A stretch of DNA of 16,401 nt, taken from IMG/VR virus record IMGVR_UViG_2695420564_000003, positions 1-16,401 of that record; one strand, 5' to 3'. Below are positions 11,401 to 16,401 of this stretch, in pieces; the first letter of the stretch is position 1; each line of letters starts with the position of its first letter. The stretch comes from a virus (taxonomy: Duplodnaviria; Heunggongvirae; Uroviricota; Caudoviricetes). A program made the position numbers.

Positions 11401-14400
11401 AAATTCATGATCCGCACTTTCTGCCGGTGATATTTGAACACCCTCCTGAAATGGTGGAAAGCGGGGCTCACCTGCTGATGGAAAACCTCGCCATGGTCAA
11501 TCCGAATCTCGGTTATTCGGTGGATGAGGCTTTTCTGTACCGGGAGTACCGTAAAGCCCGGGAGGCTGGTGAGGAAGCATTTCGTGGCTTCATGTCAAAA
11601 CACGCCAATGTGGAAATCGGTCTTGCCCTGCGTTCTGACCGCTGGGCGGGCGCGGATTTCTGGGAGCAGCAGGGCAGGCGCGTCAGCCTGGACGATATCC
11701 TGCAGCGCGCTGATGTGGTGACGGTGGGGATTGACGGCGGGGGCCTGGATGATCTGCTGGGAATGTACGTGACTGGCCGTGACAGGGAAACCCGCGAATG
11801 GCTGGGCTGGGGCCATGCCTGGGTGCATGAAACCGCGGTGGTCAGACGGAAGAGTGAGGCATCCCGGTTTCAGGATTTTGTGGCCTGTGGAGACATGACG
11901 ATTGTCCGTCGGGTCGGGGATGACACGGCGGAAGTGGCGGAGTATGTGCGTCGTATTCATGAGGCTGAGTTACTGGATCATATCGGTATTGACCCGTCAG
12001 GTGTGGGGCAGATTCTGGATTCACTGGCGGAAGCCGGGATCCCCGATGAGAGTGTGGTGGGGATAAGCCAGGGCTGGAAGCTGGGCGGGGCCATCAAAAC
12101 CACCGAGCGCAAACTGGCTGAGGGAGTGCTGGTGCATGGTGGTCAGCCACTGATGGCCTGGTGCGTTGGCAATGCCCGGGTGGAGCCTAAAGGTAACGCC
12201 ATTCTTATCACCAAACAGGCCAGCGGACGGGGAAAAATTGACCCGCTGATGGCGCTCTTCAATGCGGTGTCCCTGATGTCCCTGAATCCGGAACCGAAAA
12301 AGAAAGCGTATGAGGTTTTTTTCATATAACCCTGCTCACCCTGTAACCATCATGAACCGCTGCGGCGGTTTTTTTATTTTCAGGAGGCTGATGTGACTCT
12401 TAAACGGGCCTGTTCCCTGCTGACGGTGAAATCCTTCAGTGAGGATGAACGGGTGATCACCGGGATTGCGTCAACGCCTTCTCCGGATCGGGATGGTGAC
12501 ATCCTGGAGCCGGAGGGGGCGGAGTTTGGCAGTACGATCCCGTTTCTCTGGCAGCATGACCATTCCCGCCCTGTAGGCCAGTGTACGGTGCGTCGGGTCA
12601 GGGAAGGGCTGGAAATCACGGCAATGCTGGTGAAGCCGGAGCCGGGGATGCCCTCCCAGATGGCAGCCCGGCTGGATGAGGTCTGGGCGGCCATTAAGAC
12701 CGGGCTGGTCAGGGGGCTGTCCGTGGGCTTCCGTCCCCATGAATACACCTTTCTGGACGGAGGCGGACTGCATTTTCTGCGCTGGGAACTGATGGAGGTG
12801 TCTGCCGTCACCGTGCCCGCGAATGCGGAATGCACCATCCGGACCATTAAATCTTTCGACCGCCCGTTTTCTGCCGCGTCCGGCAACCGGAAACCGGTGG
12901 TGAAAATCGCATCTTCTGCCGGCGCTGCGGCACAGTCAACAACCGTTTTTCATAAGGAAAAGACCATAATGAATATTGGCGAACAGATTAAAAGTTTTGA
13001 AAACAAGCGTGCAGCGCTGGCAGCCTCCCTTGAGGAGGTCATGACCAAAGCCGCAGAGGAAGGGCGCACGCTGGATGTGGAGGAGGAAGAGCATTACGAC
13101 AACACCGCAGCGGAAATCCGTCAGGTGGATGCGCACCTGAAGCGCCTGCGTGAACTGGAAGCCGGTAAGGCCGCCACGGCGCAGCCGGTGAAACAGGCCG
13201 GTAACGGGAATGTGGCCGCGGTGGCTTCAGCGCCGGTGATCCGTGTGGAGCAGAAACTGGAGAAGGGGATTGGCTTCGCCCGCTTTGCCAAATCGCTGGC
13301 TGCGGCTAAAGGCGTCCGATCTGAAGCCCTGGAAGTGGCCCGTCGTCAGTATCCGGATGACAGTCGTCTGCATCATGTCCTGAAATCGGCAGTGGGCGCG
13401 GGGACCACCACGGATCCGCAGTGGGCAGGCAGCCTGTCTGAATATCAGGAATACGCACAGGACTTTATTGATTACCTGCGTCCGCAGACCATTATCGGGC
13501 GATTTGGTCAGGGCGGGATCCCTGCACTTCGTCAGGTGCCGTTCAATATCCGTGTGCACGCCCAGGTGTCCGGCGGTGCTGCCGGCTGGGTGGGTGAGGG
13601 TAAGGCAAAACCCCTGACGAAGTTTGATTTTGAATCCATCACCTTCAGTCATGCGAAAGTGTCGGCCATTGCGGTACTGACGGAAGAATTGATCCGTTTT
13701 TCCAGTCCGGCTGCTGATGCACTGGTCCGTAATGCGCTGGCGGAAGCGGTAGTGGCGCGTCTGGATACAGACTTTGTGGACCCGAAAAAAGCGGCGGTGG
13801 CGGATGTCTCCCCGGCGTCCATCACCCATGATGTGAAGGGCACGGCATCAACCGGTAACCCGGATGCGGATGCCGAGGCCGCGTTTGGCCAGTTTGTGAC
13901 GGCAAATCTGCAGCCCACTGGTGCTGTCTGGCTGATGTCCAGCACGAATGCCCTGGCGCTGTCCATGCGTAAAAATGCGCTGGGTCAGAAGGAATACCCG
14001 GACATGACCCTGCTTGGCGGCACCTTCCAGGGCCTGCCGGTGATTGTCTCCCAGTACGTGGGTGACCAGCTGGTGCTGGTGAATGCGCCGGATATTTATC
14101 TGGCTGATGACGGCGGTGTGGCGGTGGATATGTCCCGTGAAGCGTCACTGGAGATGCAGTCTGAACCGACCGGCGACAGTACTACGCCGTCCCCGGTGGA
14201 GCTGGTTTCCATGTTCCAGACAGGCAGCGTGGCCATCCGTGCGGAGCGCTGGATCAACTGGCGTCGTCGCCGTACTGCGGCGGTGGCGGTGATCACAGGA
14301 GTGAACTACGGCAGTGCGTCCGGCGGCTGAGTCTGATGAGGAGGACGGGAGGCGTGCGCCTCCCGTAACAGGTTATGGCAAAGATCCGATATCTGCAGGG

Positions 14401-16401
14401 CACGCATGATGCCCGGGCCGGGGATATCCGTGATGTGGCACAGCCGTGTGCGGAGGTGCTGGTTCGCCTGGGGAAGGCGGAGTACATCACAGTGCGACGT
14501 CCGGCAGGTCAGAAAAAGAAACGTGATGCGGAGCATGGCGAATGTGGAACCTTTTGCGGCGAACCCGAAAAAACCAGAAATCAGGACGTGATGTAAAAGA
14601 GGTGGGCTGGACCAGCCTGTTTCAGGCGGTGGCTGAGCCTTTTGCCGGTGCCTGGCAGCAGGGCGTGAAAGCCGATCCGGAAAGTGTCCTCTCCTTTCAT
14701 GCGGTGTTTTCTTGCATTTCGCTGATATCCCAGGATATCGCCAAAATGCGACTGCGCCTGATGCAGACCGATACACAGGGGATCCGCCGTGAAAAACGGC
14801 AGGGGGATATTGCCCGTCTCTGTCGTCGTCCCAATGCACAGCAGAATCGTATCCAGTTTTTTGAACTGTGGCTGAACGCCAAACTGCGTCACGGCAATAC
14901 GGTGGTGCTGAAAATCCGTAACTCCCGGGGGCAGATCAAAGAACTGCGTATTCTGGACTGGAGCCGGGTTGAACCTCTGGTGGCGGATGACGGCGAGGTG
15001 TTCTATCGCATTACACCGGACCGGAACTGCGGGATCACGGAGGCGGTGACGGTGCCTGCCCGGGAAGTGATCCACGACCGGTTTAACTGTTTTTTTCATC
15101 CGCTTGTGGGGCTGCCGCCGGTGTATGCCGCCGGGCTGGCGGCCACGCAGGGGCATCATATTCAGGCAAATTCAACGTCTTTTTTCAGAAATGGCGGCAG
15201 GCCGTCCGGGGTGATTGAGATCCCCGGCAGTATAACGGAAGAAAATGCGAAAAAACTGAAGAGCAACTGGGACAGCGGGTATACCGGCGAAAATGCGGGG
15301 AAAACGGCGATCCTGAGCAATGGGGCGAAATATAACCCCACGACGTTTTCACCGGTGGATGCGCAGACGGTGGAACAACTGAAGATGACGGCTGAAATTG
15401 TCTGTTCGGTGTTCCGTGTCCCGGCCTACAAGATTGGCGTTGGCCAGCCGCCTTCCAGTGACAACGTGGAGGCGCTGGAGCAGCAGTATTATTCCCAGTG
15501 TCTGCAGACGCTGATTGAGTCCATTGAGCTGTTACTGGATGAGGCGCTGGAAACAGGGGAAAACGAGAGCACGGAGTTTGACGTCACCACGCTGCTGAGA
15601 ATGGACAGCGAACGTCGCATGAAAACGCTGGGTGAATCGGTGAAAAATACGCTTCTCACGCCCAATGAGGCCCGTAAACGTGAGAACCTGCCGCCCCTTG
15701 CCGGCGGTGATGCACTGTATCTTCAGCAGCAGAACTACAGTCTGGAGGCGCTGTCCCGTCGTGATGCCCGTGAGGATCCGTTCGCGTCTTCCGGGAAAAC
15801 GTCGTCAGGCACACGCCAGGAGGGCGCATCTGACGGTAATAAGGCCATAAGCGAAACAGAGCGTGATGCGGTGAAGGCGATGTTCAGGGGGATACTGCGA
15901 AAATGACAGAGCGTGAACTGTCCATTATCCGTGCGCTGGGTGAAGAATTCTCCACGGTGCTGGCGGATTTACAGCGCACATTTGAGGGGAAGATGGCCTC
16001 GCAGGCACAAGCGTTTGAAGAGAAACTGACTTCCCTGTCGGCGGTATTACAGAAGCATGTGACGGTGGATGAGGTGCGTCCGGTTCTGCAGGCGATGGTG
16101 GATGACGCTGTGGGGGCCATTTCGGTACCGCGTGATGGTCGTGATTATGATCCGGATGTACTGCAGCAGGCGGTGAATGATGCGGTTGCGAATATTCCGG
16201 TACCGGCGGACGGCAAAAGTATCACCCCCGATGATGTGCGTCCGATGCTTGAGCAGATGGTGGCGGAGGCAGTGGGCCATATTCCAGCTCCCCGCGATGG
16301 TCGTGATTACGATCCGGAAGTATTAGCGGCTACCCGGAACTGGCGGTAGGCGTGGCGCGTGACCTGTTCACCATTGACGGCAGCGCGCCGGAACTGATGC
16401 G

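Follow-up and report, generated by a model that had tools for sequence, protein, structure and literature searches.

We analysed a 16,401-nt stretch of DNA, positions 1 to 16,401 of the IMG/VR virus record IMGVR_UViG_2695420564_000003 (hereafter the window), and in particular its gene at 12393-14330, which is a real, intact in-frame fusion of a gp4-type serine protease with a capsid protein that has a predicted delta domain. It lies among the head genes of a lambdoid prophage, which is of the long-tailed Stx1/Stx2c-phage type (Marienburgvirus-like); these genes run in the order HNH, terS, terL, protease-capsid, small open reading frame (ORF), portal. An earlier note, made from this sequence alone, had described a single 645-amino-acid (aa) ORF in which an S78/gp4-type protease is followed by a capsid protein of HK97 fold that has a delta domain of its own, and had suggested that the capsid might also be translated independently from an ATG at 12969. 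Our comparisons with related genes suggest that the capsid part is probably also translated alone, from an internal start that is conserved. The fusion gene has the following features:

12382-12387, + strand: Shine-Dalgarno sequence of the full-length product, AGGAGG, 5 nt upstream of the GTG start (duplex with the anti-Shine-Dalgarno sequence, -10.3 kcal/mol)

12393-14330, + strand: full-length protease-capsid ORF, 645 aa, GTG start, stop included

12450-12848, + strand: prohead serine protease core, aa 20-152 (AlphaFold2 [AF2] predicted local distance difference test [pLDDT] ~90; Pfam S78; hhalign to gp4)

12849-12968, + strand: disordered, hypervariable linker, aa 153-192, corresponding to the protease C-terminal tail (pLDDT <50; column statistics)

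12954-12958, + strand: internal Shine-Dalgarno-like AAGGA, 10 nt before the ATG at 12969-12971 (-6.2 kcal/mol)

12969-14330, + strand: nested frame for the capsid alone, 453 aa from M193 onwards, the ancestral capsid gene

12969-13187, + strand: predicted delta (scaffolding) domain, aa 193 to ~265, two long helices (AF2 model; start of the TIGR01554 match)

13260-14327, + strand: predicted mature HK97-fold capsid region, approximately aa 290-645 (Foldseek; Pfam Phage_capsid)

The same start and end of the 645-aa ORF are annotated in relatives by the Prokaryotic Genome Annotation Pipeline (PGAP) and in GenBank, and profile searches agree with the domain composition that had been described. The Pfam models Peptidase_S78 (PF04586; aa 48-152, 33.6 bits, cut-off 21) and Phage_capsid (PF05065; aa 386-635, 54.5 bits, cut-off 24.2) both match above their cut-offs. 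The NCBIfam model TIGR01554 (major_cap_HK97) matches aa 204-584 from profile position 3 (78.9 bits, cut-off 27.5), and aa 1-639 align with positions 7-626 of the 626 in PHROG 617 ("major head protein"), which is a full-length protease-capsid family (E 2.7e-260). The stricter NCBIfam equivalog for the protease, TIGR01543, scores 45.3, under its cut-off of 59. Comparison of the protease with HK97 gp4 by hhalign gives a probability of 97% over 139 columns, and aligns H55 (12555-12557) and S110 (12720-12722) with H65 and S114 of gp4, which we take to be the catalytic residues of that protein; H55 and S110 are invariant across 41 diverse homologues, and with these catalytic residues kept the protease looks active. 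The linker that follows the protease core contains the motif AASG (aa 161-164) and a degenerate PG(A/V)SG, and the free-standing proteases of unfused relatives end in the same motifs.

An AF2 model built from a 41-sequence alignment (mean pLDDT 77; capsid region mostly 75-95) places helices at aa 195-223 and 229-262 (pLDDT ~90), followed by a second disordered stretch (aa 267-285) and then the HK97 fold. These predicted helices, together with the TIGR01554 match from aa 204, support the suggestion that the capsid part has a delta domain of its own. Foldseek gave a probability of 1.0 to the capsids of HK97, Bxb1 (E 4e-15), D3 and T5, with target-normalised TM-scores of 0.6-0.73; the top 50 matches were capsids only, with no independent structural match for the protease domain. 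A sequence search of the PDB returned a single weak match, to the Bxb1 capsid (E 0.0015), and a profile comparison of the capsid part with HK97 gp5 was not significant. The capsid relationship rests on Pfam, TIGRFAM and the fold.

The fusion and the gene order are already known, annotated and very common, which the earlier note had overlooked. From terS to portal, the block has 96-97% DNA identity to 92 phage records, mostly of Stx1a-, Stx2a- and Stx2c-converting phages together with Escherichia phage JLK-2012, and these long-tailed Stx-converting/lambdoid phages have the same ORF limits and gene order. In JLK-2012 the gene (PP_55) is named "putative major head protein/prohead proteinase"; the PGAP name is "phage major capsid protein". 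Of 5426 complete E. coli genomes, 1255 carry the gene, at up to seven copies per genome. In 1249 complete genomes of this species the same 645-aa frame occurs at 95-99% DNA identity and is annotated as an intact coding sequence. A single 90%-identity cluster of 645-aa proteins has 9916 members, the window protein and the common E. coli version share 98% identity from end to end, and homologues of 644-648 aa with 73-78% identity occur in other Enterobacterales (Salmonella, Enterobacter, Klebsiella and Serratia). An exhaustive search recovered 1190 representatives (one per cluster at 50% identity) with E <= 1e-30, of which the top 150 are almost all full-length fusions of 630-680 aa; more than 140 such clusters are full-length 630-680-aa fusions with 38-55% identity to the query.

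Fused capsid-protease genes are routinely annotated in actinophages, Rhodobacter phages and archaeal proviruses, and one NCBI model, NF045541, bears the name "prohead protease/major capsid protein fusion protein". Against this NCBIfam model the window protein reaches 53.9 bits, below the cut-off of 525; it has the NF045541 architecture, and the low score places it in a different fusion family. The protease-capsid fusion is recognised in the literature as a class of architecture (PMC5679792; bioRxiv 10.1101/2020.01.10.891226; bioRxiv 10.1101/2021.08.04.455094; PMC6563490), and an internal start is not discussed in these four papers.

We compared the locus with those of 80 distant relatives from Alpha-, Beta- and Gammaproteobacteria, Flavobacteriaceae, Actinomycetes, Clostridia and Phycisphaerae. 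Nearly all 80 loci have the order (HNH, terS,) terL, protease/capsid, small-ORF gap, portal, post-portal gene, connector gene; an HNH homologue lies upstream of terS/terL in many of them, and the gap between protease/capsid and portal (median ~420 nt) holds a small ORF. As had been pointed out, the portal gene lies downstream of the capsid gene, unlike in HK97, where the order is terL, portal, protease, capsid, and the retention of this HK97-unlike order in nearly all of the relatives shows that it does mark a distinct head-assembly module. On this comparison, the module is evidently old and widespread, and is not peculiar to the window.

The protease and capsid genes are not always joined: 21 of the loci are unfused exactly at the protease/capsid junction. 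In 16 of these, the frames of the two genes differ, and the genes often overlap at ATGA or GTGA. The other five (L039, L055, L068, L069 and L082) have both genes in the same frame, with a single stop 4-6 codons before the capsid ATG; in L039 (at ~7571), L055 and L068 this stop is the TAA of TAAGGA, doubling as part of the capsid Shine-Dalgarno sequence, and L069 (TAA) and L082 (TGA) have stops without the TAAGGA motif. Low-level readthrough of the single stop in these five relatives would recreate the fusion. The unfused capsid proteins begin M-(K/N)-x-I-A-E-Q-I, comparable to M193-N-I-G-E-Q-I in the window, and some database proteins likewise begin exactly at the position equivalent to M193. 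On a neighbour-joining tree built from the capsid part, genes must have changed at least 11 times between the fused and unfused states, an approximate count.

We assembled a set of 58 in-frame fusions (57 loci plus the window), with 57 unique junctions for motif alignment. A start codon is present at the junction in every one of the 58 (55 ATG and three GTG). At the protein level, 140 of 157 representatives have a Met 4-8 residues before a conserved EQI motif, with the exceptions being mostly Val, and the linker is hypervariable in the alignment of these 157 sequences. The internal starts are preceded by Shine-Dalgarno-like sequences: the median anti-Shine-Dalgarno duplex is -6.5 kcal/mol, versus -2.5 kcal/mol for the comparison sites (35,514 in-frame codons; 805 other in-frame ATGs), and a duplex of -7 kcal/mol or stronger is found for 48% of the internal starts versus 2.6% of other ATGs (Mann-Whitney p = 4e-26 for internal starts, without phylogenetic correction). 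In strength, the internal motif matches the motifs at the N-terminal starts (-6.4 kcal/mol) and at the capsid starts in unfused relatives (-5.7 kcal/mol). The aligned junctions have AAGGAGG as their consensus from -15 to -9; purines make up 93-96% of the bases between -12 and -9, and most spacers measure 6-10 nt. This motif is spelled by differing amino acids (KEG, EEG, QEG, REG, QEA, GRN, RGA, KEA, KEN and QGA), which indicates selection on the nucleotide sequence or RNA rather than on the peptide. For the window itself, the duplex at the internal start is similar to those at the terL (-6.3 kcal/mol) and portal (-5.8 kcal/mol) starts. The earlier suggestion that ATG 12969 could serve as an independent capsid start is supported by the conservation of the start and Shine-Dalgarno sequence across the fusions; the ribosome-binding site that the note had called good is only moderate in the window.

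HK97 is the natural reference for interpreting these observations. The protease of the window belongs to the same family as that of HK97, with the same His and Ser, and the capsid part likewise has a predicted N-terminal delta domain and the HK97 fold. Maturation in HK97 removes the delta domain, and by analogy the same is expected here. In HK97, gp4 and gp5 are encoded by separate genes, and gp4 is targeted non-covalently by its C-terminal tail, whereas in the window the protease and capsid are covalently joined, with the portal gene downstream.

A second point of reference is provided by the nested in-frame protease/scaffold genes of lambda (C/Nu3), Mu (I/Z), P2 (gpO) and herpesviruses (UL26/UL26.5). 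Genes of the C/Nu3 type produce a long protease chain and a more abundant short chain with a common C-terminal assembly domain, and the long form is carried into the procapsid at a set ratio. The fusion gene shares with these systems a conserved internal in-frame start with a ribosome-binding site, known here from sequence. The shared part differs: in C/Nu3-type systems it is a separate scaffolding protein, whereas in the fusion gene it would be the capsid protein with a built-in scaffold.

We consider it likely that two proteins are made from the one frame, a chain with a tethered protease and a capsid-only chain, and we propose this as the best explanation of the observations as a whole. Initiation at GTG 12393 would give the 645-aa protease-capsid chain, and initiation at the conserved internal ATG 12969 would give the 453-aa capsid precursor alone, probably in excess. 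The two chains would co-assemble through their identical delta and capsid parts, such that a fraction of the subunits would carry a tethered protease pointing into the procapsid, as the delta domains of HK97 face the interior; being tethered would do for the protease what non-covalent targeting does for free gp4 in HK97. After assembly, the protease would remove the linker, the delta domains and itself, leaving a mature capsid protein of roughly aa 290-645, and the dose of protease per shell would be set by how often one start is used relative to the other. More broadly, we lean towards the view that the widespread head module is a natural two-start system, in which the protease is delivered covalently on a minority of capsid subunits, the start ratio determines its dose, and genes have switched repeatedly between the fused and unfused states without the capsid start being touched. 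Full-text searches of the searchable literature returned no report of an internal start or of two products in protease-capsid fusions and, as far as we found, two-start delivery has not been described before for such fusions.

Several points count against this proposal. The copy of the fusion gene in the window sits in a defective prophage, and its internal Shine-Dalgarno sequence is moderate (AAGGA with a 10-nt spacer), ranking at the 15th percentile within its own G-rich gene. Ribosomes that initiated at the GTG could block access to the internal start as they pass. The statistics on the start codon and Shine-Dalgarno sequence ignore the shared ancestry of the genes, and the count of switches comes from an unsupported neighbour-joining tree. 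Lastly, we found no experiment on the fusion family in the searchable literature.

An alternative possibility is that the gene encodes a polyprotein only, with every subunit made as the 645-aa fusion, giving ~415 proteases per shell, and with the internal ATG and Shine-Dalgarno sequence being unused leftovers. The fusion is indeed in frame, and the upstream Shine-Dalgarno sequence in the window is the stronger of the two (-10.3 versus -6.2 kcal/mol). Nonetheless, we judge a polyprotein-only gene to be improbable: an unused relic would be expected to decay, but the start codon is kept in 58 of 58 fusions and the Shine-Dalgarno sequence is kept at the nucleotide level inside a hypervariable linker, across several phyla, and the repeated interconversion of fused and unfused genes would be easiest if the capsid were always translated independently. 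It is also conceivable that the purine-rich motif is not an initiation signal, and instead encodes a cleavage or targeting peptide (K-E-G) or a translational pause, in keeping with the frequency of K-E-G and K-G 4-6 residues before the Met and with the conservation at the protein level of the linker motifs AASG and PGASG. We regard this as very unlikely, given that the encoded residues differ while GGAG/AGGA is kept, that the motif is always 6-12 nt before an ATG or GTG, and that in unfused relatives it lies outside or across the protease stop (TAAGGA), where it serves the capsid start. The idea that the fusion is an artefact, either a sequencing or assembly frameshift or a decaying pseudogene, could draw on the remnant state of the window prophage and on the existence of unfused relatives, but is effectively refuted by the occurrence of the same 645-aa frame in 1249 complete E. 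coli genomes and 92 phage records, by the 644-648-aa versions in other Enterobacterales and the more than 140 distant clusters of full-length fusions, and by the full-length, 98% identity of the window protein to the common E. coli version.

In themselves, the fusion gene and the gene order add nothing new, being standard in many enterohaemorrhagic E. coli prophages and publicly named as a fusion; the conserved second start is a modest, testable addition to this known fusion. If the capsid is indeed translated from that start as well, this would offer a testable answer to the question of how phages with fused genes avoid having a protease on every subunit. The fused, stop-separated and frame-separated variants form a natural series for studying how proteases are targeted into procapsids. 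There is also a consequence for annotation, since the records of fused genes lack the capsid-only product.

The fusion gene is flanked by the following genes and signals:

9454-9819, + strand: HNH endonuclease gene, upstream of the terminase genes (Pfam HNH, 7.5e-07; PHROG 589)

10108-10671, + strand: terminase small subunit gene, terS (Pfam Terminase_2; PHROG 641, E 1.8e-68)

10668-12329, + strand: terminase large subunit gene, terL (Pfam TerL_ATPase and TerL_nuclease; PHROG 9)

12354-12371, + strand: terminator-like hairpin and T run between terL and the fusion gene (consensus scan, a pattern match only)

14345-14366, + strand: GC-rich 9-bp hairpin right after the capsid stop, without a T run (folding)

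14375-14596, + strand: small ORF, 73 aa (PHROG 829, function unknown, E 2.1e-39)

14542-15906, + strand: portal protein gene, 454 aa (Pfam Phage_portal, PF04860; TIGR01537)

15903-16322, + strand: 5' part of the post-portal gene, cut by the fixC junction at 16323 (PHROG 8767)

The hairpin upstream of the fusion gene has a 7-bp stem followed by TTTTATTTTC, and the region around the downstream hairpin folds with -23 kcal/mol for 53 nt (z-score -3.1). In HK97, putative terminators are annotated before the protease gene, gp4, and after gp5, and the hairpins in the window flank the fusion gene in a similar way. They may help to set expression relative to that of the portal gene.

The 73-aa small ORF has no Shine-Dalgarno sequence, and the portal gene overlaps it by 55 nt. 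In relatives this gap also holds a small ORF, in many cases with the motif GD-x-F-x-A-x(2)-RDA-x(2)-L-x-A-I-x-K-A (compared by eye), and a jackhmmer search with the small ORF against the small ORFs of relatives gave no matches. The window protein loosely resembles the GD...RDA motif of the relatives: AGDIRDVAQPCAEVLVRLGKA.

The 454-aa ORF encodes a complete portal protein, matching positions 2-321 of the 321 in the Pfam Phage_portal profile (PF04860, 272 bits) and TIGR01537 (355.9 bits, cut-off 112), whereas the earlier note had named evidence against a portal identity as a finding that would refute its reading. In PGAP annotation, the portal and the next ORF are recorded together as one "frameshifted" portal pseudogene, and the 859 positions of PHROG 2271 extend over both. 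The window has an ATGA overlap between these ORFs (CGA AAA TGA / ATG ACA), and in ~60 of 62 distant relatives the two are separate genes, with stop and start overlapping, suggesting that the pseudogene call is probably an annotation artefact. A programmed -1 frameshift from the portal into the next ORF, at A_AAA_TGA, is conceivable; it is unsupported, the genes being separate and overlapping in these relatives.

The post-portal gene, which encodes 407 aa in phage JLK-2012, keeps its place between portal and connector across phyla. Its protein has a helical N-terminus and a weakly CBM_5_12-like C-terminus, with no NCBIfam match, and the gene contains a 162-nt tandem repeat (x3.3) that encodes 54-aa units containing PVPRDGRDYDPEVL and PVPADGKSITPDDV. 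The protein could be a decoration or head-fibre protein.

The prophage stops abruptly within the repeat region of this gene. Stx-type prophages continue with the full post-portal, connector and tail genes, whereas in the window similarity to phages ends at 16322 and the prophage is fused at 16322/16323 to chromosomal fixC, which bases 16323-16401 match with 98.7% identity to E. coli. All of the connector and tail genes are missing from the window, and the prophage is a truncated remnant, unable to build virions alone, a point that the earlier note had missed. What is present (~7000-16322) is a lambdoid late region, encoding a KilAC antirepressor, Rz, a TonB_C-like ORF, DUF3950, HNH, terS, terL, the 645-aa ORF, the 73-aa ORF, the portal and the start of a further gene.

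Bases 1 to ~6900 are chromosomal, with purU, desaturase genes, an N-terminally truncated edd, and eda. Identity to E. coli is only ~88% in this chromosomal part, versus ~97% in the phage part, and the whole window was not found as one piece in any single genome in a search of E. coli genomes, being mosaic in its matches. Probably the host belongs to a different, rearranged Escherichia lineage, or else the window itself is a mosaic. Along the left flank (window positions 1-7175), purU and the ychJ/rssA neighbourhood are followed by the desaturases and then by the truncated edd and eda; the regions with purU and with edd/eda are non-adjacent in E. coli. Between the lysis genes and the HNH gene lie an ORF with a TonB_C domain (8739-9080) and a DUF3950 ORF (9212-9472, - strand), and in phage JLK-2012 a "tonB-like membrane" protein is annotated at the place matching the TonB_C ORF of the window.

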